From Candidatus Aenigmatarchaeota archaeon (GTDB taxonomy: Archaea; Aenigmatarchaeota; Aenigmatarchaeia; JACPZZ01): 64,000 nucleotides of DNA. The stretch's first letter is position 1. The number at the start of each line of letters is the position of its first letter. Made by a program: the position numbers and the translations under genes. The notes beneath the pieces were generated by a model. It was not told where the DNA came from, ran no database searches, and saw nothing but the letters and a program-made list of their open reading frames with translations. Positions 11,115 through 61,376 of this stretch are shown here, piece after piece. The stretch covers positions 26,812 to 90,811 of the forward strand of contig JAZDLW010000022.1 in the NCBI GenBank assembly GCA_043801595.1, written 5' to 3'.

Positions 11115-11161
11115 CAGCGGTTTGCTGTGCAAACCGCGCATAGGAAACTTGGTTTCCTATG
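11115..11161 (+). mobile_element. Family A double-hairpin mini-element (47 nt) in a family C palindrome
   Basis: CAGCG-GTTTGC-TGT-GCAAAC-CGC-GCA-TAGGAAAC-TTG-GTTTCCTA-TG; removal restores TTCAAACTT-TAAGA-AAGTTTGAA. Confidence 0.75.
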
Positions 11162-11191
11162 AAGTTTGAACAAACGAGAAAAGTCTTTGGA

Positions 11192-11241
11192 CAACGAAAA
11201 TCATAGATTTTCGTGCACAGGAAATCAACAGATTTTCTGTG
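11192..11241 (+). mobile_element. Family A double-hairpin mini-element (50 nt)
   Basis: CAACG-AAAATC-ATA-GATTTT-CGTGCA-CAGGAAATC-AACA-GATTTTCTG-TG. Confidence 0.75.
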
Positions 11242-11260
11242 TTCCCAAAAGAAAATGAAA

Positions 11261-11422
11261 TAGCCCCGGGCGGATTCGAAATCGGCAGTGCGAAACTTTC
11301 GCTGCGCACTTCCGCCGTTTACGGGTATCGTCTGACTGAAGCATGCGTATACTAAATAGCGCATGCTTCTAGCTACTACGCCACCCAAAGCCCGCCGTGC
11401 TTGGCCGCTGCACTACGGGGCT
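11261..11422 (-). tRNA. tRNA-Gln(TTG) with two introns (37/38: 11327..11384, 58 nt; T-arm 53/54: 11281..11311, 31 nt)
   Basis: Acceptor AGCCCCG/CGGGGCT-A (A1-U72, typical of archaeal tRNA-Gln); anticodon arm GCGGG-CTTTGG^A-CCCGT; T arm GGCGG^TTCGAAT-CCGCC; BHB-type motifs at both intron junctions. Confidence 0.9.
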
Positions 11423-11430
11423 ATTTTTAC

Positions 11431-11470
11431 CTAAACAGGTGCTATTTTGCATGCACCTGTTTCTAGTTGC
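11431..11470 (+). repeat. Family B hairpin repeat upstream of tRNA-Gln
   Basis: AAACAGGTGC-loop-GCACCTGTTT followed by CTAGTTGC. Confidence 0.6.
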
Positions 11471-11568
11471 CACGTTGATTAATTGAGACTGCGCGTCTTA
11501 AATAACGTATCCGCGCGCTCCGGATGAATATAAAAGTTTAACCCTTTTATTACATATCAGGAGATTTT

Positions 11569-13005
11569 GTGGAACCGTACAAGTCCAAGTTCATACAGTT
11601 CTTAGTTGACTCCGGAGCTTTGAAAATCGGAGGATCTTACAAGACAAAGTCCGGAAGATATTCGCCTTATTTCCTGAATGCCGGAGCTTTTGACGACGGT
11701 GAAAAAGCCAGACAAGTTGGAAGGTATTATGCCGAAGCCATCAAAAGTGTTGTCGGAGACAAATTTGATCTGATTTTAGGCATTCCCAATAAAGGCATCT
11801 CGTTGGCTGTGGCGACTTCGATTGCTCTCGCTGAAATGGGGATAAACAGAGGATGGACATTCTACAGGAAGGAAGCAAAAAATTACGGAGAGGCTACTGT
11901 TGACAAAACCAAAGACCAGCTGCCGACCAGAGAGCAGATGCAAAAGGAAATGCTTGTGGGCAGTCTCATACCCGACGGCTCAACAGTACTCCCGCTTGAT
12001 GACGTTCTTACAACAAGCGAGTCAAAGCGAGAGGCGGATGCTGTAATTCGCAGAATTACAAGCGGAGTCAAAATGCCGCATGGAATAATATCTGCTGACA
12101 GACAGGAGATAAACGAAGACGGCGAAATCGCAATAGAAATGTTTGCAAAGGAATGTGGAACCGTATACACTTCTATTGTTACAGCAGGCGACATTTACGA
12201 TTATTTAAAAGAAAACGGAAAACTGGACAGTCCTGTAGATATTGCGTTCATGAGATATTTCCGCGCATGGGGAACGCCGGAGCTTAGAAAGAAGTATAAT
12301 CTTGTCGGCAGCAAGCTGATTGAAGGCCGTACAGTCATACCAGCATGCGATGTTCCGTTTGAGGATTTCGAACCTATTGTTGAAGCGACTGCGGATAACC
12401 CGAAAATTGGCGGTTACAAAATACCCGCTCATGCAGGAAGAAAGGGATGGGAGCGTTGGGTCGAAGTTGCAAGAAAATACACCAACAAGCCATTGATTTA
12501 CGATCACCAGAAAGCCGGGACGGATATTCCGGACACAGCCGGGCAATTTATGCGAGATTTGAAAGCGTCCGGCATGGACGCTGTTATTCTGTTTCCACAA
12601 TCCGGACCTAGAACGCAGGTTGCGTGGACTGGTGAGGCGCTGCAGCAGGGTTTAACAGTCTTTGTGGGCGGCGAGATGACACACCCCAAATATCTGAGAA
12701 GCGCAGGCGGTTACATAGCCGACGAAGCTCCAGACGAAACTTATGTCAGAGCTGCGCGACAAGGCGTTAACCATTTCATTGTGCCCGGAAACAAGCCTGA
12801 GAGGATAAAGCATTACCGCGAACTTATTATGGCAGAAGGTGTTGATCCGGTTTTCGCTTCGCCCGGATTGGTTGCACAGGGCGGTTCAATTTCTGAAGCA
12901 ACGAAAGTTGCTGGAGATAACTGGCATGGCATTGTCGGACGTGCAATAACCGAAGCACCGGACAAACGCGCTGCAGCCAAAGAGTTAACAAGCCAATTAT
13001 ACTAA
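11569..13005 (+). CDS. pyrE-pyrF: Fused orotate phosphoribosyltransferase / OMP decarboxylase (PyrE-PyrF)
   Basis: KSGRYSPYF, RKEAK, LDDVLTT in the N-half; DHQKAGTDIPDT, SPGLVAQGG, IVGRAI in the C-half. Confidence 0.88.
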   Translation: MEPYKSKFIQFLVDSGALKIGGSYKTKSGRYSPYFLNAGAFDDGEKARQVGRYYAEAIKSVVGDKFDLILGIPNKGISLAVATSIALAEMGINRGWTFYRKEAKNYGEATVDKTKDQLPTREQMQKEMLVGSLIPDGSTVLPLDDVLTTSESKREADAVIRRITSGVKMPHGIISADRQEINEDGEIAIEMFAKECGTVYTSIVTAGDIYDYLKENGKLDSPVDIAFMRYFRAWGTPELRKKYNLVGSKLIEGRTVIPACDVPFEDFEPIVEATADNPKIGGYKIPAHAGRKGWERWVEVARKYTNKPLIYDHQKAGTDIPDTAGQFMRDLKASGMDAVILFPQSGPRTQVAWTGEALQQGLTVFVGGEMTHPKYLRSAGGYIADEAPDETYVRAARQGVNHFIVPGNKPERIKHYRELIMAEGVDPVFASPGLVAQGGSISEATKVAGDNWHGIVGRAITEAPDKRAAAKELTSQLY

Positions 13006-13062
13006 TTTTCGGTTTGTTAAACGCTAATAAAATCAGCAGACAATATGTTTTAGGCGGAACAG

Positions 13063-14727
13063 ATGAGGATTTTACAACTGCACGCAGACAGCGTTGAGTA
13101 CGAACCTATTAAAAAGGAGATAAAGCAGGCCGAAGAAGCTGAGCAGAAAAAATACTCTTTGGTCGAGGTTCTTGTTCTTTTAACAGCAATCGAGAAGGGC
13201 GATACCAAAGAAACCGCGGCTTGGGCGATCGAAGATGCGGCGAAGTTCATGGCAAAAATGAAGATAACGAGGATGTTAATTTACCCGTACGCGCATTTGA
13301 GTTCAAATTTATCATCGCCGTTCGATGCCATGGACATTGTTCTGGAGATGGAGAAGGTTGCAAAACAGAATGGGATTGACGCAAACCATGCGCCTTTTGG
13401 ATGGAATAAAAAATTTTCGATATCTGTAAAAGGCCATCCGATGGCAGAGATGTCGCGGACTTACGTCGGAAAGCCGAAAAAAGAGGAGACGATTAAAATT
13501 GAAAAACCGAAGGCCGAGCAGACTATAGAGAAATTACCGGACAGCGACCACAGGATTATCGGGCAGAAACTCGATCTGTTCAGTTTCCAACCAGAAGCGC
13601 CTGGGATGGCTTTTTTTCATCCAGCGGGAATGGTAATCAGGAACGAGCTGGTTAAGTTAACGCGCGAGAAGCTCGCAAAGGCGGGCTATGTCGAGATAAC
13701 AACGCCGATAATGATGAAGAAAAGCATATGGGAACAAAGCGGACACTGGGACCATTACAAGGACAGCATGTTTTTCACAAAGACCGACGATGCGGAATTC
13801 GCGATAAAACCTATGAACTGTCCTGGAGCAATACTGTTCTTCAAAAACTCGAAGAAGAGTTATCGCAATCTTCCACTGCGCGTTGCGGAATTCGGCATGA
13901 TACATCGCAACGAATTAAGCGGCGTTGTAGGCGGATTGTTCCGCGTTCGCGAATTCACGCAGGACGACGCGCACCTGTTCGTGCGGGTCGACCAGCTTGA
14001 GAATGAACTCGCTGATGTAGTCGACTTGGTCTCAGATTTTTACAAACAGTTCGGATTTGCTTTCCATGTAGAACTGTCGACCCGGCCGGAAAACTCTATC
14101 GGTTCTGATGAATTGTGGAACAAAGCGGAAAGCGCGCTGGAAAATGTTCTAAAGAAAAAGAATCTTAAATTCAAAACAAACAAGGGCGACGGCGCATTCT
14201 ACGGGCCGAAGATAGATTTCCATGTGAAAGATTCGCTTGGCAGAACCTGGCAGTGCGGGACAGTGCAGGTTGATTTTTTCATGCCGCAAAGGTTTGCAAT
14301 GTCTTATGTAACTGCGGACGGCAAAGAGGCTGTTCCGATAATGATACACCGTGCAATATACGGAAGCATAGAGCGTTTCATGGGAATTCTTGTCGAACAT
14401 TACAACGGTGCGTTTCCTTTGTGGTTATCGCCAACCCAAATTAAAGTACTTCCGATAAGCGACAAGAATTTTGATTACGCAAAGGTGGTTGAAAAAACGC
14501 TTTTGTCGTCCGGGTTCAGGGTTGAAGGCGATTATGAGAATCATACGCTTGACTACAAGATCAGAAACGCCCAGATGGAGAAAGTGTTTTACACAATTGT
14601 GATAGGCGCGAAAGAGGAAGATAAAAAAACGATTGCAGTTCGCGATCGCGCCGGAAAAACAGAATACAATATAAAAATCAACGATTTTATTGAGAAGCTT
14701 GCTGTTGCTATCAAAGACCGTTTGTAA
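13063..14727 (+). CDS. thrS: Threonine--tRNA ligase
   Basis: Archaeal editing domain (YPYAHLSS, APFGW) plus KPMNCPG, RVREFTQDDAH, GAFYGPKID, HRAIYGSIERF. Confidence 0.97.
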   Translation: MRILQLHADSVEYEPIKKEIKQAEEAEQKKYSLVEVLVLLTAIEKGDTKETAAWAIEDAAKFMAKMKITRMLIYPYAHLSSNLSSPFDAMDIVLEMEKVAKQNGIDANHAPFGWNKKFSISVKGHPMAEMSRTYVGKPKKEETIKIEKPKAEQTIEKLPDSDHRIIGQKLDLFSFQPEAPGMAFFHPAGMVIRNELVKLTREKLAKAGYVEITTPIMMKKSIWEQSGHWDHYKDSMFFTKTDDAEFAIKPMNCPGAILFFKNSKKSYRNLPLRVAEFGMIHRNELSGVVGGLFRVREFTQDDAHLFVRVDQLENELADVVDLVSDFYKQFGFAFHVELSTRPENSIGSDELWNKAESALENVLKKKNLKFKTNKGDGAFYGPKIDFHVKDSLGRTWQCGTVQVDFFMPQRFAMSYVTADGKEAVPIMIHRAIYGSIERFMGILVEHYNGAFPLWLSPTQIKVLPISDKNFDYAKVVEKTLLSSGFRVEGDYENHTLDYKIRNAQMEKVFYTIVIGAKEEDKKTIAVRDRAGKTEYNIKINDFIEKLAVAIKDRL

Positions 14728-14779
14728 AGGTATAGAATGGCTCGGATCGCCAAAAAAACCGCGTTTCGCGGTGATAAAC

Positions 14780-14787
14780 TTTATATA
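14780..14787 (+). promoter_or_regulatory. TATA box upstream of the long ftsZ leader
   Basis: TTTATATA about 25 nt before a structured region that starts near 14813. Confidence 0.5.
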
Positions 14788-14899
14788 ACACTTTCACCAA
14801 TTATTATCAATTAGGGAGTAGAACTCCTCGTGTAAAAGGCGTTCGGTAACGCCGATTCTTGGTTTGCACTATGACGTGGCAGGGTTACCTACCGCGTTT

Positions 14900-14945
14900 C
14901 ACAGGTTGCGGGGCAACCTGTGCAAGGAAACAAATGTTTCCTTTG
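14900..14945 (-). mobile_element. Family A mini-element (reverse)
   Basis: Reverse complement CAAAG-GAAACA-TT-TGTTTC-CTTGCA-CAGGTTGC-CCC-GCAACCTG-TG. Confidence 0.7.
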
Positions 14946-14977
14946 TAGGCGAAACGAGTTTTGGCGGTCTGAAGCTT

Positions 14978-15022
14978 CGCAGGTTGCAGAGCAACCGGCG
15001 CAGGGAAACACGGTTTCCCTTG
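14978..15022 (-). mobile_element. Family A mini-element (reverse, diverged)
   Basis: Reverse complement CAAGGGAAAC-CGT-GTTTCCCT-GCG-CCGGTTGC-TCT-GCAACCTG-CG. Confidence 0.6.
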
Positions 15023-15034
15023 TGTTGCACATTT

Positions 15035-15068
15035 TGACTAGTCTAACAAGTTTAGACTAGTCTGTCTG
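15035..15068 (+). repeat. Family B-like hairpin
   Basis: TGACTAGTCTA-ACAAGTT-TAGACTAGTC-TGTCTG. Confidence 0.5.
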
Positions 15069-15079
15069 AACTTTTCAAA

Positions 15080-15105
15080 CAACGGAAACGATCGCGTTTC
15101 CTCTG
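15080..15105 (+). mobile_element. Family A single-hairpin (deleted) variant in a family C palindrome
   Basis: CAACGGAAACG-ATCG-CGTTTCCTCTG flanked by TGAACTTTTCAAA / GAAGTTCA. Confidence 0.5.
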
Positions 15106-15121
15106 GAAGTTCACTCAAATA

Positions 15122-16261
15122 ATGGAGGGGAATTGTATGTCGATATTGGAGTCGGTATTAAACAAGGGTGCTGCAACAGCAGGTCACGGAAGCGATTCGG
15201 GCGTGACAATGAAGAATTTCGATTATGAAAAGATAACCGAACAAGAGTTTGGTTTCAGCATGAAAAGAGCGAAAATAGTTGTAATTGGATGCGGTGGTGG
15301 AGGTACTAACTCTATCAATCGTCTGGCAGAAATGGGCGTTGAAGGAGCCAATACTGTTGCAATAAACACGGATGCAAAGCATTTAGCGGTCATAAAGGCT
15401 GACAAAAAGATCCTTATTGGAAAGGAAATTACCAGAGGTTTGGGAGCAGGCGGTTACCCGGAAATAGGAAAGAAAGCAGCCGAAGAGAGTAGAACACAGC
15501 TGAAAGAATCGCTGGCAGGAGCCGATCTGGTATTCCTCACTGCCGGAATGGGCGGTGGAACCGGAACAGGTTCAGCACCGGTCGTTTCCGAGATTGCGAA
15601 AGAATTGGGCGCGATCGTTATCGGAGTGGTAACAATGCCATTCAAGATCGAAGGCGCAAGAATTATTAAGGCCGAGAACGGTCTCGGAAAATTACGAGAA
15701 GCGTGCGACACTGTAATAGTGATCGAGAACGATAAACTTCTCGAGTTTGCAGGTGACCTTCCGATCCAGCAAGCGTTTGCCGTAGCGGACGAATTGATCG
15801 CCGGGATGGTAAAGGGAATAACAGAGGCTATAACGCTGCCGTCATTGGTTAACCTAGACTACGCTGACGTGAAGGCGATAATGCATTCGGGCGGAGTCGC
15901 GGCAATAGGCCTTGGATTCTCAAACAGTTCCGACAGGGCGCGCGATGCTGTAACAAAAGCATTGCAGAATCCGTTGTTAGAAGTTGATTATCAGGGCGCT
16001 AGCGGAGCGTTAATCCACATAACAGGCGGCCCAGACCTTAAACTGTCCGAAGTCAACCAAATCGGTGGCATAGTGTCTTCGCATCTAGATTCCTCGGCGC
16101 AGGTAATCTGGGGCGCAAGAGTGCAACCGGACTTCCACGGAAAGGTGCAGGTAATAACAATAATAACAGGAGTTACCAGCCCGTACATACTGGGCCAGGT
16201 TACCAGGGAATCCACCCCTACCTTGGGAATCAGCGAGCTCGGTATTGACAGGATAGCATAA
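15122..16261 (+). CDS. ftsZ: Cell division protein FtsZ
   Basis: GCGGGG, AINTD, GLGAGG, GMGGGTGTG, NLDYADV. Start may be 15137. Confidence 0.98.
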   Translation: MEGNCMSILESVLNKGAATAGHGSDSGVTMKNFDYEKITEQEFGFSMKRAKIVVIGCGGGGTNSINRLAEMGVEGANTVAINTDAKHLAVIKADKKILIGKEITRGLGAGGYPEIGKKAAEESRTQLKESLAGADLVFLTAGMGGGTGTGSAPVVSEIAKELGAIVIGVVTMPFKIEGARIIKAENGLGKLREACDTVIVIENDKLLEFAGDLPIQQAFAVADELIAGMVKGITEAITLPSLVNLDYADVKAIMHSGGVAAIGLGFSNSSDRARDAVTKALQNPLLEVDYQGASGALIHITGGPDLKLSEVNQIGGIVSSHLDSSAQVIWGARVQPDFHGKVQVITIITGVTSPYILGQVTRESTPTLGISELGIDRIA

Positions 16262-16287
16262 ACTAGAATTGCGGTGCGATGAAGCGA

Positions 16288-16336
16288 CACAGGAAACGAT
16301 AGTTTCCTGTGCACGGTTTGCTTTTGCAAACCTTTG
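16288..16336 (-). mobile_element. Family A mini-element (reverse)
   Basis: Reverse complement CAAAG-GTTTGC-AAAA-GCAAAC-CGTGCA-CAGGAAAC-TATC-GTTTCCTG-TG. Confidence 0.75.
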
Positions 16337-16372
16337 AGCTGAGCACTTTACTAATTTTTAAACTTTTTAAAA

Positions 16373-16473
16373 CAACGGAAACCTATGGTTTCAACGAAAA
16401 CTCAAGAAGTTTTCGTGCATAGGGAAACTCGGTTTCCCCATGCCGTGCATAGGAAATTGTCGAATTTCCTATG
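16373..16473 (+). mobile_element. Two nested family A elements (inner 16392..16442)
   Basis: Removing the inner unit restores ACGGAAACC-TAT-GGTTTCCGT; removing the outer unit restores TAAACTTTT-TAA-AAAAGTTTA. Confidence 0.8.
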
Positions 16474-16486
16474 AAGTTTAATCAAA

Positions 16487-16522
16487 CAAGCTTTTCAAAA
16501 AAGCTTGAGCAAAAGAGAATGG
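16487..16522 (+). repeat. Family C palindrome (empty copy)
   Basis: CAAGCTTTT-CAA-AAAAGCTTG-AGCAAAAGAGAATGG. Confidence 0.6.
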
Positions 16523-16687
16523 TTTTAAACCGTTCGGTACTAACATTATTTTATGGAGATAACGACAAAGTCGGTGAGGAAATTTTTCAAGTCCAAGAAG
16601 AACCTGTTATACATGTTTTTCTGGTCGCTGATGTTTTTGGCCGGTTTTGCGGTTGCGTTGTTGTTAATTGCGCGGGGGCGGGTTTGA

Positions 16688-16927
16688 ATGGTCGGAGATA
16701 AGATACCCAGGACAGAGGTTGTCAAGTGGATCGAGAGGTTGGATAAAAAACTGGTCTCTGCCCAACCGAAAAACAGGAAGGCGGGGGAGGTTTTAAAGAA
16801 CGCAGAAGCGTATCGCGACGATTCCAAACATTGGTTAAAAGAAGGCAACCTTTTCCTTGCGTTCGAGGCGTGTGTGTATTCGTGGGCGATAATCGAAACC
16901 GCGGAAGCGTTAGGCGAGGTCGTTTAG
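16688..16927 (+). CDS. DUF357-like small archaeal protein
   Basis: NAEAYRDDSKHWLKEGNLFLAFEACVYSWA; DUF357 genes commonly neighbour dph5. Confidence 0.75.
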   Translation: MVGDKIPRTEVVKWIERLDKKLVSAQPKNRKAGEVLKNAEAYRDDSKHWLKEGNLFLAFEACVYSWAIIETAEALGEVV

Positions 16928-17368
16928 GACAATAGCCATTGCTATTGAACCGCCGAACGCGAAACCGAAGAACAAGCCGGACGATAACCAAACGAAACCG
17001 TTAACGGCAAGGTAGACAAGAACGAAACCGAAGATTACTGATGCCAAATAACTCGGAAGCTCGTAGTCTATCTTTTTTGCAAGCATTTTCATCCTCTGCG
17101 AATTCTTCGTCTTCGAGGCGTAAAATCGCCTGTAGAAAACCCAGTGTTTTCCGAATTCATGGTGCCAGTGCGTGCCATAGAACATGCCCACTGCGATGCC
17201 TAACAGGAAACCGGCGTAAATTCTGTTTCCTGTAGCCAGGTAAACGTTAGTTGATTCGAGAAATAGGAAGGCTGCAAGCAAGGCGATGAAAACATGCGCT
17301 TTTGCTGTCATTGCCCAGATAAGATGATCCCTGTGCAGAAGCCTGTACGCCTGCTTTAAAAAATTCAT
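16910..17368 (-). CDS. Hypothetical membrane protein (about 4 TM)
   Basis: Hydrophobic helices; start set to MNFLKQ to avoid overlap with dph5. Confidence 0.55.
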   Translation of the reverse strand: MNFLKQAYRLLHRDHLIWAMTAKAHVFIALLAAFLFLESTNVYLATGNRIYAGFLLGIAVGMFYGTHWHHEFGKHWVFYRRFYASKTKNSQRMKMLAKKIDYELPSYLASVIFGFVLVYLAVNGFVWLSSGLFFGFAFGGSIAMAIVLNDLA

Positions 17369-17419
17369 ATATAATATTCCCAATACGTCCAATTTAAGGT
17401 TTATTGGTGATGTGATTTT

Positions 17420-18163
17420 ATGCTTTCGATAATAGGGCTGGGTATTTTTGACGAGAACGATATATCCCTGCGCGGCCTTGAAGAGATTAGGCGTTCTGAT
17501 AAAGCTTATGTCGAATTTTATACGAACATCTGGCACGGCGATGTTGCAAAGCTCGAAAAAACGGTTGGAAAGAAAATCATCGCATTAAAGCGCAGGGACA
17601 TCGAGGACAACAACAGGATCATAAGCGATGCGAAAGCGAAAAACGTGTGTTTACTGGTTCCAGGCGATCCGCTGGCTGCGACAACGCACGCAGAATTGCT
17701 GCTTCGTGCAAAAAATGAAGGAATCGAAACTAAGATCATACACTCATCCTCCATATTTTCGTCGGTTGGCGAATGCGGGTTGCAGCTGTATAAGTTCGGG
17801 CGGACTGCGACCATCCCTCTTCCCGAGAAGACGGGCGGTGTTGCGCCGGAATCGGTTTATGACATTGTTAAAGGAAATCTAAAACTGGGAGCCCACACGT
17901 TGCTGTTGCTGGACATAGACGTGGAGAATAAAAAGGCGCTCTCTGTGAAAGAAGGATTGGAAACGCTGAAAAAACTCGACAAGAAAAAAATTCTCGGCAA
18001 ATTCGTTGTCATAAGCATGCTCGGTTCAGAGAAGCAACGCATCGATTACGGCGATTACGGCAAATTGTCAAAAATAAATTATGAACTTCCGGCCGTTATC
18101 GTTGTTCCGGGCAAACTTCATTTTGCAGAGGAAGAGTTTATTAATGCTGTTGCTTTTAAATAG
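17420..18163 (+). CDS. dph5: Diphthine synthase
   Basis: IGLG, EFYT, GDPLAATTH, GLQLYKFG, HTLLLLD, LHFAEEE. Confidence 0.95.
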   Translation: MLSIIGLGIFDENDISLRGLEEIRRSDKAYVEFYTNIWHGDVAKLEKTVGKKIIALKRRDIEDNNRIISDAKAKNVCLLVPGDPLAATTHAELLLRAKNEGIETKIIHSSSIFSSVGECGLQLYKFGRTATIPLPEKTGGVAPESVYDIVKGNLKLGAHTLLLLDIDVENKKALSVKEGLETLKKLDKKKILGKFVVISMLGSEKQRIDYGDYGKLSKINYELPAVIVVPGKLHFAEEEFINAVAFK

Positions 18164-18183
18164 GTTGTCAAGAAAATAGTATT

Positions 18184-18825: not shown

Positions 18826-18864
18826 TTTTAGAAACGATTTAACGATACGCGTTTAATTCTAATT

Positions 18865-19356: not shown

Positions 19357-19373
19357 ATCGTGCGGTTCGGCGT

Positions 19374-24273: not shown

Positions 24274-24293
24274 CAATAAACGACCTTTTTTAA

Positions 24294-24394
24294 CAACGGA
24301 AAGCTTCTGCTTTCAACGGAAGCCACAGGTTTCCGTGCACAGGAAAATCGTGATTTTCCCGTGCCGTGCATAGGAAATTTCCGAATTTCCTATG
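24294..24394 (+). mobile_element. Two nested family A elements (inner 24314..24363)
   Basis: Removing the inner unit restores ACGGAAAGC-TTCT-GCTTTCCGT; the outer unit sits in a GACCTTT...AAAGGTC palindrome. Confidence 0.8.
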
Positions 24395-24453
24395 AAAGGT
24401 CAATCAAAAAGGGTTTGTCGAGAAATAAAAACTAACGAAAAGAGAATGATATT

Positions 24454-24939: not shown

Positions 24940-24950
24940 ACTTCTTAGGA

Positions 24951-25000
24951 CAACGGAAAGCCGAAGCTTTCCGTGCAAAGGAAACGCATCGTTTCCTTTG
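24951..25000 (+). mobile_element. Family A mini-element (50 nt) in a family C palindrome
   Basis: CAACG-GAAAGC-CGAA-GCTTTC-CGTGCA-AAGGAAACG-CAT-CGTTTCCTT-TG; flanks TAAACTTCT/AGAAGTTTA. Confidence 0.8.
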
Positions 25001-25055
25001 AGAAGTTTAATCAAGAAATAATACGGTTAAATAGATCACAGGAGAACTAGTAATT

Positions 25056-43078: not shown

Positions 43079-43124
43079 CACATAAAATTAAATTTTCTGT
43101 GCACGAAAACCGAAGTTTTAGTTG
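43079..43124 (-). mobile_element. Family A mini-element (reverse)
   Basis: Reverse complement CAACTAAAAC-TTCG-GTTTT-CGTGCA-CAGAAAAT-TTA-ATTTTATG-TG. Confidence 0.7.
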
Positions 43125-52364: not shown

Positions 52365-52389
52365 TTTTATAGGACGACAATTTCTAAGC

Positions 52390-52781: not shown

Positions 52782-52800
52782 TAAAATCGTCCTCGCAGAT

Positions 52801-52870: not shown

Positions 52871-52873
52871 TAT

Positions 52874-53068: not shown

Positions 53069-53154
53069 GTTATCGTATTACTTATCCGAGACGATGTATT
53101 TAAGCCTTTTCTTTTAAAGAAAAGAAAAGCGATATAATGCCTGTATAATGAATA

Positions 53155-53304
53155 CAGCGAAAATCCGACGATTTCAACGAAAACCATTAGGTTTCAACGA
53201 AAAACCGAAGTTTTTCGTGCATGGGAAAATTCGATTTTTCCATGTCGTGTATAGGAAATCGATGATTTTCTATGTCGCGAATAGAAAACCTGTGGTTTTC
53301 TATT
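53155..53304 (+). mobile_element. Three nested family A elements (50+50+50 nt; inner 53195..53244, middle 53175..53274)
   Basis: Sequential removal restores ACGAAAACC-ATTA-GGTTTTCGT, then GCGAAAATC-CGAC-GATTTTCGC. Confidence 0.85.
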
Positions 53305-53307
53305 AAA

Positions 53308-53463
53308 GCTCCTGTGGTCCAGCCTGGACAAGACAAGAGGTTGCGGATAACCTTTTTCCTTTAAAAAGGAAAAACGTTAACGAAAAAGGAAAATTTTGAC
53401 GTTAACGTAAAATAAACGGTTGGCAGATACCTCTAAACCCGGGTTCAAATCCCGGCGGGGGCA
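53308..53463 (+). tRNA. tRNA-Arg(GCG) with 82-nt intron at 37/38 (53347..53428)
   Basis: Acceptor GCTCCTG/CGGGGGC-A; AGAGG-TTGCGG^A-CCTCT; CCGGG-TTCAAAT-CCCGG; strict BHB (UUGC/GCAG helix, GG^A and AU^A bulges). Confidence 0.92.
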
Positions 53464-53468
53464 TATAA

Positions 53469-53954: not shown

Positions 53955-53986
53955 AGTATTTATTTCACTTTGTTTTTATTAATCGT

Positions 53987-54499
53987 ATGCCCGACCTTGC
54001 CAGCGTGCTGTGGCTCATACTTCCCGCTTATGTCGCGAACAGCAGCGCGACATTTGCAAAAGGCAGGATCAGCATAGATTTCTCAAAAAAATTTCCTGAC
54101 GGCCGACCGATTTTCGGGGCTGGAAAAACGTTCGAGGGTTTTGCGCTGGGCGTTGCGGTCGGCACGATCGCTGGTTTTTTACAATCGGTTTTGCAGAGCG
54201 CTTACGGAGTTAGCCCTGCGTTCAGCATGAACATTACGATTGCGTTTGCGATGTCGGCTGGAGCGTTGCTCGGTGACATAGCCGGCAGTTTTGTAAAGAG
54301 ACGGTTCGGTTTGAAGAGAGGCGAACCTGTGCCATTGCTGGATCAGCTTGATTTTGTTGCGGGTTCGCTGGTTGTCGCATCGTTCTTTTACGCAATAAGC
54401 TTGGACACAATGCTTGTGCTGGCAATAATAACCCCCGTAATACACTTGGCGGCAAACGTAATCGGATACAAGCTCGGCGTTAAAAAGGAGCCATGGTAA
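53987..54499 (+). CDS. carS: CDP-archaeol synthase
   Basis: PAYVANS, DGRPIFGAGKTFEG, GDIAGSFVKRR, LDQLDF, KKEPW. Confidence 0.93.
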   Translation: MPDLASVLWLILPAYVANSSATFAKGRISIDFSKKFPDGRPIFGAGKTFEGFALGVAVGTIAGFLQSVLQSAYGVSPAFSMNITIAFAMSAGALLGDIAGSFVKRRFGLKRGEPVPLLDQLDFVAGSLVVASFFYAISLDTMLVLAIITPVIHLAANVIGYKLGVKKEPW

Positions 54500-54500
54500 C

Positions 54501-55121
54501 GTGATGAAATCCAGCAGCATGATTGATATTGCCCGCATTGAGAAAATCATCGGAGGGTTATTTTCCAGAATTCCGATGACCCCGAATCAGTGGACTGCCG
54601 CATCGCTGGTTTTCGGAGCGGTCGGCGCAATAATTGTCGTGGCGCAAAAAAGCTTTGCGTATGCGCTCGCGTTTTTTATCATCGCGTTCATAGCGGATTA
54701 TGCTGACGGGGCTGTTGCAAGGTTTCGCCGCAACGAAACGAAACTGGGCGCATATTTCGACGGCATTGCGGACAGGTTTGTGGAGGCGATGATAATAGTA
54801 AGCCTGATGTTTTACGGCGTACCGGATTTTTTAACAGACTCAAGAATATTGCTTGCGTTGCTGCTGTTTATGGCGACGATGACATCGTATTCCCGCGCGT
54901 ACGCCGGCCATAAGAAACTTGTAACCGATCCGAAAAGACTTGTTGCAATGGGCGGAATTCTGGAAAGGTTCGAGCGTGTTTTCGTTCTGCTTTTATCAAT
55001 GCTTGCGTCGCTGTTTTATGGAGCACAGATCATATCATATGCTGCGGCAGCACTGTTATTGTTATCATCGTTAACGGTTTTGCAAAGGATCGCTTATTCG
55101 GCAAAAGAGGGAAGAAAATGA
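54501..55121 (+). CDS. CDP-alcohol phosphatidyltransferase
   Basis: TPNQWT, DYADGAVAR...GAYFDGIADR. Confidence 0.9.
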   Translation: MMKSSSMIDIARIEKIIGGLFSRIPMTPNQWTAASLVFGAVGAIIVVAQKSFAYALAFFIIAFIADYADGAVARFRRNETKLGAYFDGIADRFVEAMIIVSLMFYGVPDFLTDSRILLALLLFMATMTSYSRAYAGHKKLVTDPKRLVAMGGILERFERVFVLLLSMLASLFYGAQIISYAAAALLLLSSLTVLQRIAYSAKEGRK

Positions 55122-55456
55122 AACAAACGATACTCGTACGGACCGATATAAAAATGTCTGTCGGCAAAAAGATTGCGCAGGCGTGCCACGCCTGTGTGGG
55201 CGCGGTCATGGACGCCAACAAGAAAGCCGTTGATGCGTGGAATTCGGCCGGAGCAAAAAAAATCGTGCTTGCCGTAAATGACGGGAAACGATTAACGGAA
55301 TTGTATAAGGGAGCGAAAAAGCTGGGTCTGCCGTGCTTTCTGGTCGCGGATGCAGGATTAACTGAGCTGGAGCCTGGGACGATTACGGCGCTGGCGATAG
55401 GGCCCGCAGACGACAAGCGTATCGATAAACTCACGGGCAACATAAAACTTTTGTAG
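55118..55456 (+). CDS. pth2: Peptidyl-tRNA hydrolase 2
   Basis: KQTILVRTD..M..GK..AQACHA, DAGLTEL.PGT. Confidence 0.95.
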   Translation: MKQTILVRTDIKMSVGKKIAQACHACVGAVMDANKKAVDAWNSAGAKKIVLAVNDGKRLTELYKGAKKLGLPCFLVADAGLTELEPGTITALAIGPADDKRIDKLTGNIKLL

Positions 55457-55464
55457 GCGAATAT

Positions 55465-55872
55465 ATGAAATCTCCAGTTTTAACAGTAGACTCGGTAATC
55501 GAGATAAACGGTAAAATAGTTCTCATCAGGCGGCTTGCGAATTCTTTCAAGGGTTTTTGGGCTCTGCCCGGAGGGTTCGTGGAGTACATGGAGACTGTTG
55601 AGAACGCCGCGATAAGGGAGGCGAAGGAGGAGACCGGATTAAAGATAAAGATAAAGCGGCTCATAGGAGTTTATTCGGATCCGAAAAGAAATCCGGACAA
55701 GAAACACAGGGTCGCGGTGGCATTTGCGGCAGAGAAAATCGGAGGAAAACTGAGAAGCGGCAGCGATGCGGGCGGCATAGGATTGTTTTCCGAACGTGAC
55801 ATGAAAAAGATGAAACTCGCATTCGACCACAACAAGATGATCGGCGATTACTTCAAACAGAGGACGGTTTGA
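55465..55872 (+). CDS. NUDIX hydrolase
   Basis: WALPGGFVEYMETVENAAIREAKEETG. Confidence 0.93.
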   Translation: MKSPVLTVDSVIEINGKIVLIRRLANSFKGFWALPGGFVEYMETVENAAIREAKEETGLKIKIKRLIGVYSDPKRNPDKKHRVAVAFAAEKIGGKLRSGSDAGGIGLFSERDMKKMKLAFDHNKMIGDYFKQRTV

Positions 55873-55873
55873 A

Positions 55874-57307
55874 TTGACAAAGTATGAAAAATTCGTTCCA
55901 ATCGTCCTTTTTTTGTATCTACTGGTTTCCGGATTTAAAATAATAAGCCCGCTGCCGCTGACCTATGACCCTGCGCTACACGCTGAAATAGCAACGTACC
56001 TTATACCGTTGTCGTTGTTCCCGATCACATGGAGCCCGCTGGCTGATGTCGGGTATACGTATCCGCCGCTTTTCCACTGGGCGGCGTTTTTATTTTCAAC
56101 GTCCGGCATCGCAACTTACAAAATCGTAATGCTTATGGGGCTATTGCTTTACGCATTATTTCCAGTATCTTTTTACCTGTACGGCAGCGCGTTCGGGCGG
56201 ATTGAAGCCATGCTTTTTTCGTTTTTCGGTGCAGTGCAGGCCAGCCTGATGGAAGTTTTTGCGGCCGGGGAGTATCCGCAGCTTTTATCAATGAATCTTG
56301 CTGTCATAGCACTTTATTTTTTAGCAAAAAAGGACCTGCCGAAGGCGGGTTTGTTTGCAGGTTTTGTCGTGTTGTCTCATTCGTTCACTTCTATCTATCT
56401 TGCCGTTATACTGGCCGCGTATTTCCTGATTTCCCGCTTAACAAATGAAAAAATAAAATCGTCAAGCGCTGCAGCGTTTTTCCTGATATTCATTGCGATA
56501 TCGTCGTTATGGGCGCCGCGCTACGTACAAATAGCGGAGAATGCGGCGAACAGCAGCTGGGAAAACACGATATGGTACCACAAGGCGGGATTTATCGGTT
56601 TAGAACAGGTCAATAACATTTTTCTGAGCGTCATGCCAGGCGCCAGGATGGGAGCGATCTTTTTGATATTGTCGCTCATCGGAGTGTTTTATGCGTACAA
56701 ACGAAAATTTTATTTTCAATTGTTCGTTTTCGCTTTCACAGTTCTATTTACGGTATTCCACATACCCGGAACGCAATACAAGTTTTCGGACATGCTTGCG
56801 ATCGCGGTTCCACCCATAGCGTCGTTCGGTGTGCTGTACTTCATGGCGAAGACGAATAAGACCAAACCCTACGCAAAAATAATAATCGCAGGTTTTTTTG
56901 TCGCAATGCTTTTGGCGCACCCGTACGTCAATGCGGTCAATATGCGCAATTGCTGCGTGTCAAAGGACATGCCAAACAGCGATGAAATAAAATCGGCGGA
57001 ATGGTTGAACGCGAACGATGCTGTTCATTCCGTAATCGTGATGGATAGCGACGCCGAGGCGTGGTTCGCGCTTATAGCCGGGAAGATTCCGCTGAACCCG
57101 CGCGTATCCGAGTTGGAGTCGTTTACGCCTGCGTACAGGCAAAAAATCGCGGATCGCAGAACCATAATAAATTTGTTCGAGAACAGTACGGCGTTGCTTG
57201 AAAAGTGGAATGTTGATTACATTGTCACGGACACGAACATCAATCCGGCGAATTTCCGTTTATTTCACGAGGAGGGCTTGGTTAAGCTATATAAACGTTA
57301 TGTCTGA
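55874..57307 (+). CDS. Polytopic membrane protein, GT-C-like glycosyltransferase candidate
   Basis: YDPALH, YPPLFH loop motifs; many TMs; C-terminal soluble domain. Confidence 0.55.
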   Translation: MTKYEKFVPIVLFLYLLVSGFKIISPLPLTYDPALHAEIATYLIPLSLFPITWSPLADVGYTYPPLFHWAAFLFSTSGIATYKIVMLMGLLLYALFPVSFYLYGSAFGRIEAMLFSFFGAVQASLMEVFAAGEYPQLLSMNLAVIALYFLAKKDLPKAGLFAGFVVLSHSFTSIYLAVILAAYFLISRLTNEKIKSSSAAAFFLIFIAISSLWAPRYVQIAENAANSSWENTIWYHKAGFIGLEQVNNIFLSVMPGARMGAIFLILSLIGVFYAYKRKFYFQLFVFAFTVLFTVFHIPGTQYKFSDMLAIAVPPIASFGVLYFMAKTNKTKPYAKIIIAGFFVAMLLAHPYVNAVNMRNCCVSKDMPNSDEIKSAEWLNANDAVHSVIVMDSDAEAWFALIAGKIPLNPRVSELESFTPAYRQKIADRRTIINLFENSTALLEKWNVDYIVTDTNINPANFRLFHEEGLVKLYKRYV

Positions 57308-57318
57308 TTATCACTTAG

Positions 57319-57756
57319 GTGAAATCATTGGAGGATAAAAAAAAGGAATTGGAGCAAAAATATTACCTGTACCAATTTTTGAAAGAACAACTGGACAGCC
57401 TTAACAATCAGGCAGAGGCCATGAGAGCGGCGATATTGGAAACACAGGCTTCGATAAATGCTGTCCAAGAGTTGCTTGGCGGCGAGAAGACAACGCTTAT
57501 ACCGCTCGGCGCGGGCACGTTTGTGGAAGGCAAAATAGAAAAAGTCAACAAAGTTGTGATATCGATCGGTTCCGATGTTCTTGTTAACGAGGATTCGGCA
57601 AGCGCCAAAGTAAAGCTTGAACAGAGACTAAATGAGATGGAAAGCGCTTACAACAACCTTTTAAGCGATACGGCAAGCGTTACAGCACAAATACAATCCA
57701 TATTGCCAGACGTGGAGCGCCTTGCGGGCGAGTTAAATTATTCCGATAAGAAATAA
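57319..57756 (+). CDS. pfdA: Prefoldin alpha subunit
   Basis: Coiled coils plus LIPLGAGTFV...VISIGS; upstream of ftsY. Confidence 0.9.
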   Translation: MKSLEDKKKELEQKYYLYQFLKEQLDSLNNQAEAMRAAILETQASINAVQELLGGEKTTLIPLGAGTFVEGKIEKVNKVVISIGSDVLVNEDSASAKVKLEQRLNEMESAYNNLLSDTASVTAQIQSILPDVERLAGELNYSDKK

Positions 57757-57761
57757 TCTAC

Positions 57762-57788
57762 CAAACTTTTAGAAAAGTTTGATCAAAA
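57762..57788 (+). repeat. Family C palindrome (empty copy)
   Basis: CAAACTTTT-AG-AAAAGTTTG-ATCAAAA directly after a stop codon. Confidence 0.6.
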
Positions 57789-57801
57789 GGTGCGCGGTAT
57801 T

Positions 57802-59016
57802 GTGTTTGGATTTCTCAAGAAAAAAATCAAAGAATCGATAGATAACATAAGTAAGGCTGTTTCTAAAAAACCGGTTGAAACGAAAACCGAAGAAAAAAAG
57901 GAAGAAGCCGAGAAAATAGATAATACGGTTGGTACGTACTCAGAGGACAAGTTTTCAGAAAGCGGGGTTGTTGCAGAAAAATCGTTGGAGGACGAAACAA
58001 CACAGGGATATCCCGAAGCTGCGGAAAAGCCAATCAACATCGAAGTCGAAGTTAAGAAAGAGCTTGAGCAGATCGAAACTGCTGAAGAGATAAAACCGCA
58101 TGTTGAAACGAAGACTGAAGGAAAAAAGGAAGGTTTTTTGGGGAGGATAACAAAAAAATTCGCAAAGCAGATAACAGAGGTTACGATAAAGGAGGACGAC
58201 ATCGGCGGCGTGCTGGACGACCTGAAAATCGGACTAATGGAAAACGACGTCGCGCTCGATGTTGCCGAGAAAATATGCGTTGATATCGAGAAAAGCATTG
58301 TCGGAAAAAGCGTGAAAAGATCGAAGATAGAGGATGCGATAAAGGAATCGATGCGGAAAAGCGTTTCCGAGATACTGGCGCAGGATTATACCGATATCGT
58401 TGATTTTGTAAAAACGCACGAGAAACCTGTTCTGATTATTTTCGCGGGATTCAACGGCGCGGGAAAAACAACAACGCTTGCGCGCGTAGGAAAATACCTG
58501 AAGGATCGAAGTTTGGAATGCGTTTTCGCAGCCGGCGATTCGTTCCGCGCTGCGAGCATAGAACAGATACAGGTGCACGGCGACCGTCTTGGAATAAAAG
58601 TGATCAAGCATGGTTACGGAGCTGATTCTGCGGCTGTTGTGTTCGACGCGATGAAGTACGCAATTGCGCATAACATTGATGTCGTTTTAGCAGATACAGC
58701 CGGAAGGACGCACGTCAACGCAAATTTGATGGACGAATTGAAGAAGGTCTGCCGCGTCAATAAACCAGCGATGAAGATACTCATCCTTGATAGCCTAACG
58801 GGCAATGACATAGTGCAGCAGGCGCAGCGCTTTGATGAAGCGATCGGCATAGATGCGGTCGTATTTACGAAAGTAGACGTTTATGAAAGGGGCGGGGCTA
58901 TTTTGTCAGCGTCGCACACGATAAAAAAACCGATTTTATTTTTGGGTGTTGGTCAGGATTACGACGATCTTGAGAAGTTTGATAAGGATAAGATTGTTGA
59001 TATGTTACTTGCGTGA
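57802..59016 (+). CDS. ftsY: SRP receptor FtsY
   Basis: Acidic N-region, GFNGAGKTTT, DSFRAAS, DTAGR, TKVD. Confidence 0.96.
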   Translation: MFGFLKKKIKESIDNISKAVSKKPVETKTEEKKEEAEKIDNTVGTYSEDKFSESGVVAEKSLEDETTQGYPEAAEKPINIEVEVKKELEQIETAEEIKPHVETKTEGKKEGFLGRITKKFAKQITEVTIKEDDIGGVLDDLKIGLMENDVALDVAEKICVDIEKSIVGKSVKRSKIEDAIKESMRKSVSEILAQDYTDIVDFVKTHEKPVLIIFAGFNGAGKTTTLARVGKYLKDRSLECVFAAGDSFRAASIEQIQVHGDRLGIKVIKHGYGADSAAVVFDAMKYAIAHNIDVVLADTAGRTHVNANLMDELKKVCRVNKPAMKILILDSLTGNDIVQQAQRFDEAIGIDAVVFTKVDVYERGGAILSASHTIKKPILFLGVGQDYDDLEKFDKDKIVDMLLA

Positions 59017-59026
59017 CGATTCTTAA

Positions 59027-59386
59027 TCATTGCGGCGCGTAGCTGTTGAACGCCTTTTCAAGTTCGTTCCTGTAGTCCGGAATTCTTGCCCAATATTCGG
59101 CAGCAGAATATACACCTTTTCTTACAAAGGCTTCTGTTAAACCGAGATGGTTTTTGAACTGCCTCAATTGCGTATCTATCACAGCATTACCATTCTCGCA
59201 CAAAACAATATCATGCGTTGCACTCCAGCCTTTCTTTTGTATGTCAAAGTGATATTCAGAAGCGGACGGATCCCCTTTTCGCACTTCCGGCAGGATGAAC
59301 CTTGAAGCGTTTACGCAGTTCTTTGTGAAACTACCATTAGTATACATTTGTCTTGCCTGACGAACCAGATCTTTGAACATCTTCAC
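59027..59386 (-). CDS. Hypothetical protein
   Basis: 119-aa ORF between ftsY and srp54; NC...H..V pattern weakly papain/transglutaminase-like. Confidence 0.45.
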   Translation of the reverse strand: MKMFKDLVRQARQMYTNGSFTKNCVNASRFILPEVRKGDPSASEYHFDIQKKGWSATHDIVLCENGNAVIDTQLRQFKNHLGLTEAFVRKGVYSAAEYWARIPDYRNELEKAFNSYAPQ

Positions 59387-59526
59387 TACTGAGTAGTTAC
59401 TACTATATAAAACTGATTATCGACAAATGCCGTTCCATACCATATATATTATGCTTTGTGTGTTATCGGGTAAAGAAGCGATTTCAGGTTTGCATGCTAT
59501 AGATAATTCACGGTTCGGTTGGTGTT

Positions 59527-60849
59527 ATGGTTTTAGACAAACTCGGTGACGCACTCTCAAACGCATTGCGAAAGATAGCAGGCAAAGGCTACGTTGATCA
59601 GGCTGTTGTCGACGAATTTATCCGCGATTTGCAGCGAGCGCTTCTGCAGGCTGACGTGGACGTTAAGCTTGTTTTCAGCCTTTCCCAAAAAATACGCGAC
59701 AAGGTGCTGAAGGAAAAACCGCAGTCAGGAATGACGCCGAAAGAGCACATGGTCAAGGTTGTTTACGACGAACTTGTAAATTTTCTCGGAAAAGAGACGG
59801 GTTCGGTTGAACTGAAAAAACAAAAAATACTTTTAATCGGTTTGTTCGGTTCGGGAAAGACGACGACAGCTGCGAAACTTGCGAAGTTTTTCGTCCGCAA
59901 AGGATTGCGTCCTGCGTTGGTCGGTTGCGACGTTTTCCGGCCCGCTGCCCAAGAACAGATTTTACAATTGGGCAGCCAAATTGGAGTTCCTGCTTATGCA
60001 ACCGGCAAAGATCCGGCGAAAATAGTTGCGGAAGCGATCAGGAAATTTTCCGACTGCGATGTAATAATATTCGATTCTGCTGGGCGCAACGCGTTGGACG
60101 CGGAGCTTGTTGACGAACTAAAATCGATAAAGGACGCAGTGAAGCCGGACGAGGTTTTCCTTGTTATTCCGGCGGATATCGGCCAAGCGGCCGGAAAGCA
60201 ATCCGAAGAATTTTCGAAAATCGTAGGCATAACAGGCGTAATAGTAACGAAAATGGACGGAACAGCAAAAGGCGGCGCTGCGCTGAGCTCTTGTTCAATC
60301 GTTAACGCGCCCATAAAATTCATCGGAGCTGGCGAGAAAGTTGATGATTTAGAGCAATACGACCCGAAGCGATTTGTCTCGCGATTAATCGGCTACGGCG
60401 ATTTGCAGAGCCTTATTGAAAAGGCGGAGGAAATAAAGACGCCAGAATTGGCAAAGTCAGCCGAAAACATGATCAGCGGAAAATATTCTTTGCAGGATTT
60501 TTACGAACAGATAGAATCGATAAAGAAGATGGGACCCCTGAAGCAGGTTATGCAGATGATACCCGGACTGAAAATGCCGGAAGGAATTCTGGATGTGCAG
60601 GAAAAACAGATGGCCAAGTGGAAAGTTGCGATGGATTCCATGACCCGTAGTGAAAAGTTAAATCCTGAGATAATCGACCAGTCGAGGATACGGCGGATCG
60701 CGGGCGGCTCCGGATTAAAAGAAGACGATGTGAAGGAACTGATAAAACATTATGACCGCACCAAAAAGGTAATGAAAATGATAGGCGGAAAAAACCTAAA
60801 GCGCGGTAATCTGTCCCAGTTGGCAAAACAGTTCGGAATGGCTGTGTGA
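59527..60849 (+). CDS. srp54: Signal recognition particle protein SRP54
   Basis: ALLQADV, GLFGSGKTTT, DSAGR, TKMDG, M-domain SMT..E..SRIRRIAGGSG. Confidence 0.97.
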   Translation: MVLDKLGDALSNALRKIAGKGYVDQAVVDEFIRDLQRALLQADVDVKLVFSLSQKIRDKVLKEKPQSGMTPKEHMVKVVYDELVNFLGKETGSVELKKQKILLIGLFGSGKTTTAAKLAKFFVRKGLRPALVGCDVFRPAAQEQILQLGSQIGVPAYATGKDPAKIVAEAIRKFSDCDVIIFDSAGRNALDAELVDELKSIKDAVKPDEVFLVIPADIGQAAGKQSEEFSKIVGITGVIVTKMDGTAKGGAALSSCSIVNAPIKFIGAGEKVDDLEQYDPKRFVSRLIGYGDLQSLIEKAEEIKTPELAKSAENMISGKYSLQDFYEQIESIKKMGPLKQVMQMIPGLKMPEGILDVQEKQMAKWKVAMDSMTRSEKLNPEIIDQSRIRRIAGGSGLKEDDVKELIKHYDRTKKVMKMIGGKNLKRGNLSQLAKQFGMAV

Positions 60850-61376
60850 TTGCTTTGAAGATCGGCGTATTCGGAGATGCGCACATACCTGATCGTGCCC
60901 ATAATATTCCAGAATCAATCAGGAAAGAACTTTATTCGTGCGATATGATTGTCTGTACCGGAGACTTGACGGGCGAGGACGTTGTCAAATTTATCAAAGC
61001 GTCAGGAAAAAAACACAAAATCGTGCGCGGGAACATGGACCATTTGGATTTTCCGAAGACCGAAAGCATTGATATAGAAGGAAAGAAGATAGTTATAACA
61101 ACGATTTGCTTTGCAAATCGTGCATAGGAAATCGATATTTCCTATGCGCACAGCGACGAAGTGAGGCCGAGAGGCGACAAAGAACAGCTGTTCGGAATTG
61201 CGAAAAGATATTGCGCTGATGTTTTGGCGTACGGGCATACACACAAACAGGACGTATGGGAAAAAGACGGCATAATGTTCGTGAATCTGGGATCAGCGAC
61301 AGGTTGCGGCAGAACAGGACAGCATTGTGCGGTTATTGAAATAAAAAATAATTCGATAAACGTGAAAAGGGTTTGA
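60846..61376 (+). pseudogene. YfcE/Vps29-family metallophosphoesterase interrupted in frame by a 48-nt family A element carrying TAG
   Basis: DAH, GDL, GNMD in the first ORF and HSD, GHTH, NLGS in the second; both in the same frame; excision gives KIVITHSDEV. Confidence 0.8.
61099..61146 (+). mobile_element. Family A mini-element (48 nt) inside a CDS
   Basis: CAACG-ATTTGC-TTT-GCAAAT-CGTGCA-TAGGAAAT-CGAT-ATTTCCTA-TG. Confidence 0.85.

Follow-up and report, generated by a model that had tools for sequence, protein, structure and literature searches.

Units in the window

The stretch analysed here, referred to as the window, comprises 64,000 nucleotides from the genome of a Candidatus Aenigmatarchaeota archaeon (contig JAZDLW010000022.1, positions 26,812 to 90,811, forward strand) and includes ftsZ, a tRNA gene and a gene for a metallophosphoesterase. 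The genes in it are archaeal, consistent with a DPANN host of that phylum. The window contains 16 copies of a short unit of two tandem hairpins, family A, which is the subject of this study. The host genome (G000; contigs C1, C2 etc.) amounts to 814 kb in 32 contigs, is 86% complete and has 797 predicted genes. L-numbers denote loci or contigs of relatives, and G200 is a genome of a Woesearchaeota order. An initial annotation of the window had listed about 16 units of 45-51 nt; all 16 were confirmed at their positions and family-A length in the window was 45-51 nt. Fourteen were recovered by an iterative scan, the copy at 14978r (r, minus strand) by structure scans, and the deleted copy at 15080 by direct reading (Table 1).

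Table 1. Coordinates of family-A units in the window, and of family-C units and stand-alone LAGLIDADG genes (at least five) outside it. Numbers without a contig label are window positions; families B and C are described in the text.
Feature	Position	Strand	Context
Unit	11115..11161	+	1 bp inside 3' arm of a family-B hairpin, which contains the stop codon of open reading frame (ORF) 10654-11112
Unit	11192..11241	+	
Unit	14900..14945	-	Upstream of ftsZ; site empty in L002
Divergent unit	14978..15022	-	One mismatch in hairpin 2; absent in L002
Internally deleted unit	15080..15105	+	5' arm of hairpin 1 joined to 3' arm of hairpin 2; within a family-B hairpin
Unit	16288..16336	-	Downstream of ftsZ; site empty in L002
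Outer unit	16373..16473	+	In a family-B hairpin; interrupted by inner unit 16392..16442
Inner unit	16392..16442	+	5 bp into 3' arm of outer unit's hairpin 1 (GTTT|CCGT)
Outer unit	24294..24394	+	In a family-B hairpin
Inner unit	24314..24363	+	Nested position identical to that of 16392..16442
Unit	24951..25000	+	1 bp into 3' arm of a family-B hairpin
Decayed unit	43079..43124	-	
Outermost of three nested units	53155..53304	+	Directly 5' of tRNA gene; hairpin 2 reads AA..TT
Middle nested unit	53175..53274	+	
Innermost nested unit	53195..53244	+	
48-nt unit	61099..61146	+	Within metallophosphoesterase gene (start 60846); absent in 6/6 congeners
Family-C unit	G000 C2:11925-11973		
Family-C unit	G000 C14:17366-17415		
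Family-C units	L002, L005, L046, L052, L066		
LAGLIDADG gene	G000 C1:7923-8432		
LAGLIDADG gene	G000 C10:1367-2209		
LAGLIDADG gene	G000 C10:6505-7512		
LAGLIDADG gene	G000 C23:56096-57268		
LAGLIDADG gene	G000 C24:43988-44659		

Fold, covariation and possible closed form

In each unit, a leader of 2 nt precedes hairpin 1 (20-23 nt), and a linker of 1 nt separates this from hairpin 2 (23-29 nt), for a total of 45-53 nt. Fold z-scores ranged from -6.0 to -9.0 in 8/8 stretches folded, and the stems are A/T-rich (the L052 unit has 27% G+C). The proposal that pairing is kept by compensatory changes held up: in an alignment of 56 rows, 96.8% of the cells were paired and two-sided changes were seen at 18 of the 20 pairs. 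This level of covariation was reached by none of 500 shuffles, and slid controls paired at 25-50%, with the provisos that the alignment structure was derived from the same sequences it tests and that related rows inflate the covariation control.

The ends read CA...TG in 119/129 units, which constitutes a 2-bp inverted match. Because the 3' letters follow the 5' foot of hairpin 2, with which they covary (TG..CA, AA..TT, CG..CG, GG..CC), CA...TG is not a terminal inverted repeat. The absence of such a repeat, as first described, therefore stands, qualified by the 2-bp match.

When the ends are joined in circular folding, the linker G pairs with the leader C in 67/67 units (a count that is partly by construction), which measure 46-52 nt, and the closed unit is a dumbbell, a single duplex capped by two loops and carrying one extra A. 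The linear fold lacks the leader-linker pair, and the extra A is seen in the closed form and not in the linear minimum-energy fold. A letter-blind scan of the genome and its relatives for tandem perfect hairpins with a 1-nt linker, with no letters prescribed, showed complementarity between the linker and base -2 ahead of the shorter hairpin in 29/29 and 54/55 cases, respectively, whereas in the opposite direction it was found in only 5/29 and 14/55. The extra base was A in 81/83 of these tandem hairpins.

A further repeat, family C, has the same two-hairpin plan with another leader (AA or AT), linker (T or A) and end letters; it is nearly symmetric, so the plan fits both strands, and family A inserts into it. 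In three family-C rows of the alignment the C-G leader-linker pair is replaced by A-T, which supports the dumbbell pair, while two rows of AT/A type (AT leader, A linker) pair via the second leader base.

Distribution

A strict regular expression for the unit matched 36 times in this genome and 0 times in three order-5 Markov genomes. A looser peeling scan, in which a unit is removed and the sequence rescanned iteratively to uncover nested units, found 67 units in the genome, 66 of them distinct; 14 emerged after one removal and two after two. The strict pattern was present in 6/6 congeners and in 0/34 other relatives. As the initial annotation had recommended, a covariance model was built from the unit alignment and scanned over genomes of the genus, the phylum and a Woesearchaeota order. 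It gave 23-91 hits per genome within the genus, this genome being highest, as well as hits in 17/151 phylum genomes and 8/61 genomes of the Woesearchaeota order; the inspected hits were mostly tandem hairpins with single-base bulges. The family also occurs at 12 metagenome loci, with near-identical units at differing sites in L159, L165 and L167, and the named records with the same repeat are Aenigmatarchaeota metagenome-assembled genomes. In view of its recurrence in six congeners and 12 metagenome loci, an assembly artefact was rejected.

The units had no match in Rfam, and the family was not recognised in the initial annotation. Four patterns searched in viral contigs gave 0 matches, and blastn of one unit against plasmids and phages gave no match covering 80%. 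A Nitrososphaerales match (L062) proved to be a chance match within rtcB. Lone hairpins, considered as autonomous copies, are deletion remnants, and no autonomous copy was found. Since we found no description of it in the openly accessible literature, family A is apparently undescribed.

The L159 contig carries units as well as TnpB; several of its ORFs have no homologue in this genome, and it is possibly a virus or plasmid. At two Woesearchaeota loci (L072, L096), at least five single-bulge hairpins make up a composite that shows compensatory changes; one arrangement within it, hairpin 1-hairpin 2-hairpin 1, has the middle hairpin in common.

Filled and empty sites

The 61099 insertion is missing from all six congeners, in which the metallophosphoesterase gene is intact and in frame, and the boundary is exact. 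Here the unit is in frame as well; it carries a TAG, with which the ORF terminates at 61127. L002 has no unit at the sites of 14900r, 14978r and 16288r, which lie to either side of ftsZ; at nested and palindrome sites, taking the unit out restores a perfect fold. No target duplication was seen at any site with a known empty state, and a 1-nt duplication was ruled out at nested and coding sites. The comparison of filled with empty orthologous sites, which had been proposed as a check, thus confirmed the exact restoration without duplication that was noted at the outset. Among 58 units of relatives, 34 were without synteny here, and 19 of the 24 with a syntenic site had no unit at it. A family-C unit splits an IS200 tnpA in L052, the same gene being whole in L051. 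Hairpins of another repeat, family B (see below), are intact in 38 cases and restored in 16 more when units are removed. A 48-nt antisense unit (G000 C23:79587-79634) lies in frame in a gene that we take to be rtcA (RNA 3'-phosphate cyclase), to which it adds 16 residues and no stop, so that the gene stays open; another unit is located, antisense, in a tRNA intron.

On this comparative evidence we conclude that family A is mobile DNA, and it is highly probable that the mobile unit is handled as a folded single strand. The initial picture of a structure-defined, non-autonomous element served by an enzyme in trans is supported. That the units are instead conserved terminators or small RNAs appears the least probable of the readings considered here. 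Most copies are intergenic and two orthologous units are unchanged between genomes ~85% alike, but presence and absence at exact boundaries, nesting, gene disruption, the lack of a strand bias and the lack of an Rfam match refute this reading as an origin; single copies may have been co-opted later. [quoted passage not shown] Such a reading would accommodate the common end letters and the four DDE transposase genes present. However, it is largely refuted by the empty-site alignments, with exact empty sites and no duplication, and it is hairpin 2 and not the 5' end with which the 3' letters change. In addition, the fold is the same in family C although the letters at its two ends are different, and the units, unlike classical DDE MITEs, have neither terminal inverted repeats nor target duplications.

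Target sites

Counting an insertion as a hairpin insertion when it falls within a perfect hairpin of at least 6 bp, we found 42/67 insertions in hairpins compared to 304/4000 intergenic control positions (8%). These insertions were polar: read on the leader-first strand, they fell on the 3' side 37:5, compared to 153:147 in the control. Pooling with relatives gave 73/128 in hairpins and 66:7 on the 3' side, and exclusion of nested copies gave 27/50 and 23:4. Most nested copies (14/17) lie 5 bp inside the 3' arm of hairpin 1; for copies in family-B hairpins, the usual entry point is 1 bp inside the arm. The initial annotation overlooked this polar hairpin targeting, along with the dumbbell closure and SMR-A, the closest published analogue (see below).

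Family B, the commonest host of family A, is an AAACTT...AAGTTT-type hairpin with a 3' RATCAAA tail. It has 54 copies genome-wide, is co-oriented with genes 31:2, and occupies window sites 11105-11170, 16365-16520, 24280-24410 and 24940-25015.

Base -1 is A/T in 122/129 units, and G is found before the unit in only 6/129 and directly after it in only 3/129. Over 109 flanks, target information amounts to at most 0.8 bit at -1 and <=0.3 at -2 to -5. A fixed ruler from an upstream AAA was rejected: A at -13 in 63/109 flanks is accounted for by two common target classes. The end palindromes of IS200/IS605 elements also contain or adjoin units (L016, L060, L074, L237, L239, L253). Lagging-strand orientation was 30:21 by local skew, which is weak, over the 32 contigs.

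Relative to genes, 14 units are sense and 14 antisense, and this lack of bias points to a DNA-level process. It also bears on an RNA route, in which the tRNA splicing endonuclease would excise the unit, RtcB would circularise it, and reverse splicing and reverse transcription would follow. EndA and RtcB are present, one unit is in a tRNA intron, and 13 of the 16 units found within family-B hairpins are oriented like family B, which follows transcription. Nevertheless, there is no overall orientation bias to genes, the tRNA intron and a gene each contain an antisense insertion, the ends lack a bulge-helix-bulge, and no reverse transcriptase (RT) match was obtained here; we consider this route highly unlikely.

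Loop inversion and reassortment

The exact reverse complement was present in the set for 10/101 hairpin-1 and 10/109 hairpin-2 sequences. Inversion controls gave 2 and 2, and 0 and 0, and random loops gave 3.1 (maximum 10) for hairpin 1 and 1.7 (maximum 6) for hairpin 2. The evidence that loops occur in both orientations is therefore firm in the case of hairpin 2 but borderline in that of hairpin 1. In 26 pairs, one hairpin 1 is combined with an unrelated hairpin 2, indicating that the two hairpins reassort. Rolling-hairpin copying of a dumbbell would invert the loops independently, as would template switching in place.

In G200 (L254, L262, L265-L284) we observed a composite repeat of 180-330 bp, with >20 near-identical copies and TTAT on both sides. 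Its components are a hairpin of IS605 type, A-like units in nested positions and an arm of 50 nt; this arm occurs in two orientations (16:5), which indicates that inversion is common in these genomes. G200 has an intact Y1 gene.

Search for an enzyme

We found no match to Y1, TnpB, a tyrosine or serine recombinase, IS110, RT or Cas1 in this genome, at 86% completeness, and no IS605-type end was found in it. The protein scan applied Pfam to the 64 window proteins and, in the remainder of the genome, to 323 of the 363 proteins of 95-520 aa that are soluble and non-acidic; six more of the 363 were searched on PHROGs only and 34 were skipped. Among the 64 window proteins Pfam revealed no candidate enzyme, as was initially stated, and Pfam scans of 387 proteins in all revealed no HUH protein and no recombinase. 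The 91 unmatched ORFs contained no credible HUH motif. What Pfam did find were the four DDE transposases, five LAGLIDADG proteins, the resolvase-like nuclease PF10107, XPF (ERCC4), EndA and RtcB. No mobile gene recurs beside units, and neither does a LAGLIDADG or resolvase gene. About four further LAGLIDADG look-alikes in the 814-kb genome have no Pfam match.

Among five genomes searched, a tyrosine recombinase was matched in two, IS110 in none, and RT, resolvase and Cas1 in two each; none of the genomes with a match was this one, and the matching loci had no unit in their vicinity. TnpB is present in all six congeners, indicating that IS200/IS605 elements pass through the lineage. At 13 Y1 loci of the phylum, the ends showed no relationship to the units.

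Comparison with known systems

The units behave most like SMR-A of Haloquadratum walsbyi, which is described as archaeal, gene-less and duplication-free, with no known mobilising enzyme (PMC3119063). SMR-A is reported to insert into near-terminal palindromes of IS605-type elements and PATEs (PMC3119063), and here, too, units are found in IS605-type palindromes. However, the same description gives SMR-A ~110 bp, prominent terminal inverted repeats and >95% identical copies (PMC3119063), whereas the units have 45-53 nt, two tandem hairpins and no terminal repeat, nearly all copies differ from one another, and their insertion sites also include their own hairpin, a second family of repeats and genes. 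The distinction from SMR-A is one of description, and the SMR-A sequences may bear on novelty.

With IS200/IS605 elements and PATEs, as described, the units share hairpin-defined ends, strand polarity, the lack of duplication and precise empty sites (PMC5027513, PMC3119063), and terminal-only PATEs of 52 bp are reported (PMC3119063). In contrast to IS200/IS605, the units have no fixed 4-5 nt target and their hairpins reach the very ends; they are also unlike IS200 ends of the same genus, and no TnpA was found in the genome. REP, REPIN and BIME sequences with their RAYTs are described as having many diverged copies that keep the fold only, a bulge near the stem base, intergenic location and composite arrays (PMC3337134, PMC8266576), all of which recall the units. 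Nonetheless, the units lack a GTAG-type foot (the leader is CA, AA or AT), no RAYT gene is flanked by them, and they form two separate tandem hairpins, whereas a REPIN, by these accounts, is one doublet hairpin. Finally, fungal mitochondrial double-hairpin elements (DHEs) are described as short, probably mobile two-hairpin units in spacers and genes with no known enzyme; by that description they are organellar and >75% G+C (PMC10085805), in contrast to the A/T-rich stems seen here, and the plan of two hairpins is all that they have in common with the units.

We also considered a gene-less, integron-like cassette, in which the dumbbell would be a folded recombination site used by a tyrosine recombinase in one strand exchange. 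Integron attC cassettes recombine as a folded single strand with an extrahelical base, and one strand exchange gives the product. The closed form of the unit is also a folded strand with an extrahelical base, and its inverted GGAAA/TTTCC motifs around a 7-bp centre with one extra A follow the layout of folded attC sites; moreover, a one-strand exchange is consistent with the polarity. Against this, the units have no integrase in the host, no attI and no cargo gene, the cut would fall mid-spacer with no crossover triplet common to targets, and 3/5 congeners searched, this genome included, have no tyrosine recombinase match. We therefore consider a cassette quite unlikely. Taken together, the units fall outside IS200/IS605, PATE, REP/REPIN, DDE MITE and attC, and depart from SMR-A in size and ends.

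A model for movement

Our preferred reading, with a probability of about 0.55, is that family A is a gene-less two-hairpin element of ~50 nt whose likely mobile form is a single-stranded dumbbell, covalently closed, which one strand exchange joins to a folded target, probably through an HUH enzyme (Y1-type) acting in trans. The unit would be excised or moved as a closed single-stranded dumbbell circle, and cuts would be made in the dumbbell at the G|C junction and in the target 1-5 bp into an arm. A single-strand exchange would then yield a three- or four-way junction to be resolved by replication, and the extra A would set the strand choice. A unit in a hairpin arm forms such a junction, the product expected of one dumbbell-target strand exchange.

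The enzyme itself may be an HUH (Y1-type) tyrosine transposase acting in trans. HUH is only the likeliest guess for its class; given mobility as a folded single strand, we would put the chance of Y1 or another HUH enzyme at about half. It ranks first because members of that family are documented to form single-strand circles, act with strand polarity, read bulges, give exact ends and bind four-way junctions (PMC5027513, PMC8266576), and because units gather at IS605-type palindromes. IS608 TnpA is described as excising a single-strand circle and binding four-way junctions without its target word (PMC5027513), and TnpA-REP as requiring a bulge in REP stems (PMC8266576). The initial annotation had regarded the insertions as typical of HUH transposition. 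That assignment was not established, with no fixed target tetranucleotide, no IS200/IS605 end layout, no GTAG foot or linked RAYT, and no Y1 or TnpB match here.

Several observations weigh against the dumbbell model or its enzyme. The absent target word and the absent gene both speak against Y1/HUH: Y1 enzymes pick 4-5 nt targets by guide pairing, whereas the bias here is at -1 only, and Y1 was found in 2/7 genomes of the genus and 0 here, and in 5/17 model-positive genomes vs 23/151 overall. The genome with the most units in the genus has no Y1 or TnpB match. Following the suggestion that HUH/RAYT, IS110 or recombinase genes flanked by the motif be sought, we found no flanking units at any of 37 Y1, integrase and RT loci; the sole full unit there is an insertion into tnpA. 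No head-to-tail unit junction occurs in this genome, and 25/67 copies lie outside perfect hairpins, the 61099 gene insertion among them. As the units descend from few founders, the kept letters of the C-G closing pair are not independent evidence, and common descent weakens the letter-blind test. Stem covariation and loop inversion can stem from template switching in place, and the G200 units multiply passively within the larger TTAT-flanked repeat.

Host junction or repair enzymes might instead nick a cruciform or hairpin arm, with ligation or template switching installing the dumbbell and no transposase involved. PF10107, ERCC4 and the five LAGLIDADG proteins are the only DNA-cutting candidates held by the genome with the most units, a nested unit is predicted to fold as a clean four-way junction, and the frequent loop inversions fit template switching. 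Yet hydrolytic nucleases do not account for base-exact ends without microhomology, priming on a circle would need the G before the unit that is so seldom found there, and units are not repeatedly accompanied by a LAGLIDADG or resolvase gene. We consider this explanation unlikely.

A bolder reading than transfer of the dumbbell by a known HUH enzyme, and one we put forward as doubtful, is a new minimal class of mobile DNA: a dumbbell with a flipped-out A that reads target shape and strand, replicates by a rolling hairpin and depends on an enzyme family not yet linked to transposition. Were this true, rolling-hairpin extension would invert each loop independently and shuffle the two halves, no target sequence or homology would be needed, and the SMR-A repeats would be accounted for also.

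If mobile as read, the units would be among the smallest mobile elements known, and they are abundant in streamlined DPANN genomes (67 in 814 kb), where they disrupt genes, contribute peptides in frame and insert into tRNA introns and insertion sequence ends. Scarless insertion guided by fold and strand, not sequence, would be chemistry outside IS200/IS605, RAYT or IS110 rules. The dumbbell model turns the question of how SMR-A, DHEs and these units move into a simple oligonucleotide assay.

Other features of the window

The tRNA gene at 53308-53463 (anticodon GCG) has a long hairpin-rich intron; it was found by Rfam and missed by ARAGORN. The non-coding stretch 14750-15060, upstream of ftsZ, is ~80% conserved in L002 and has no Rfam match; it is possibly a structured RNA or promoter region interrupted by units. 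At 16273-16346, a GTGC-GATGA...CTGA-GCAC sequence, which resembles a box C/D kink-loop and is whole in L002, is divided here by the 16288r unit.

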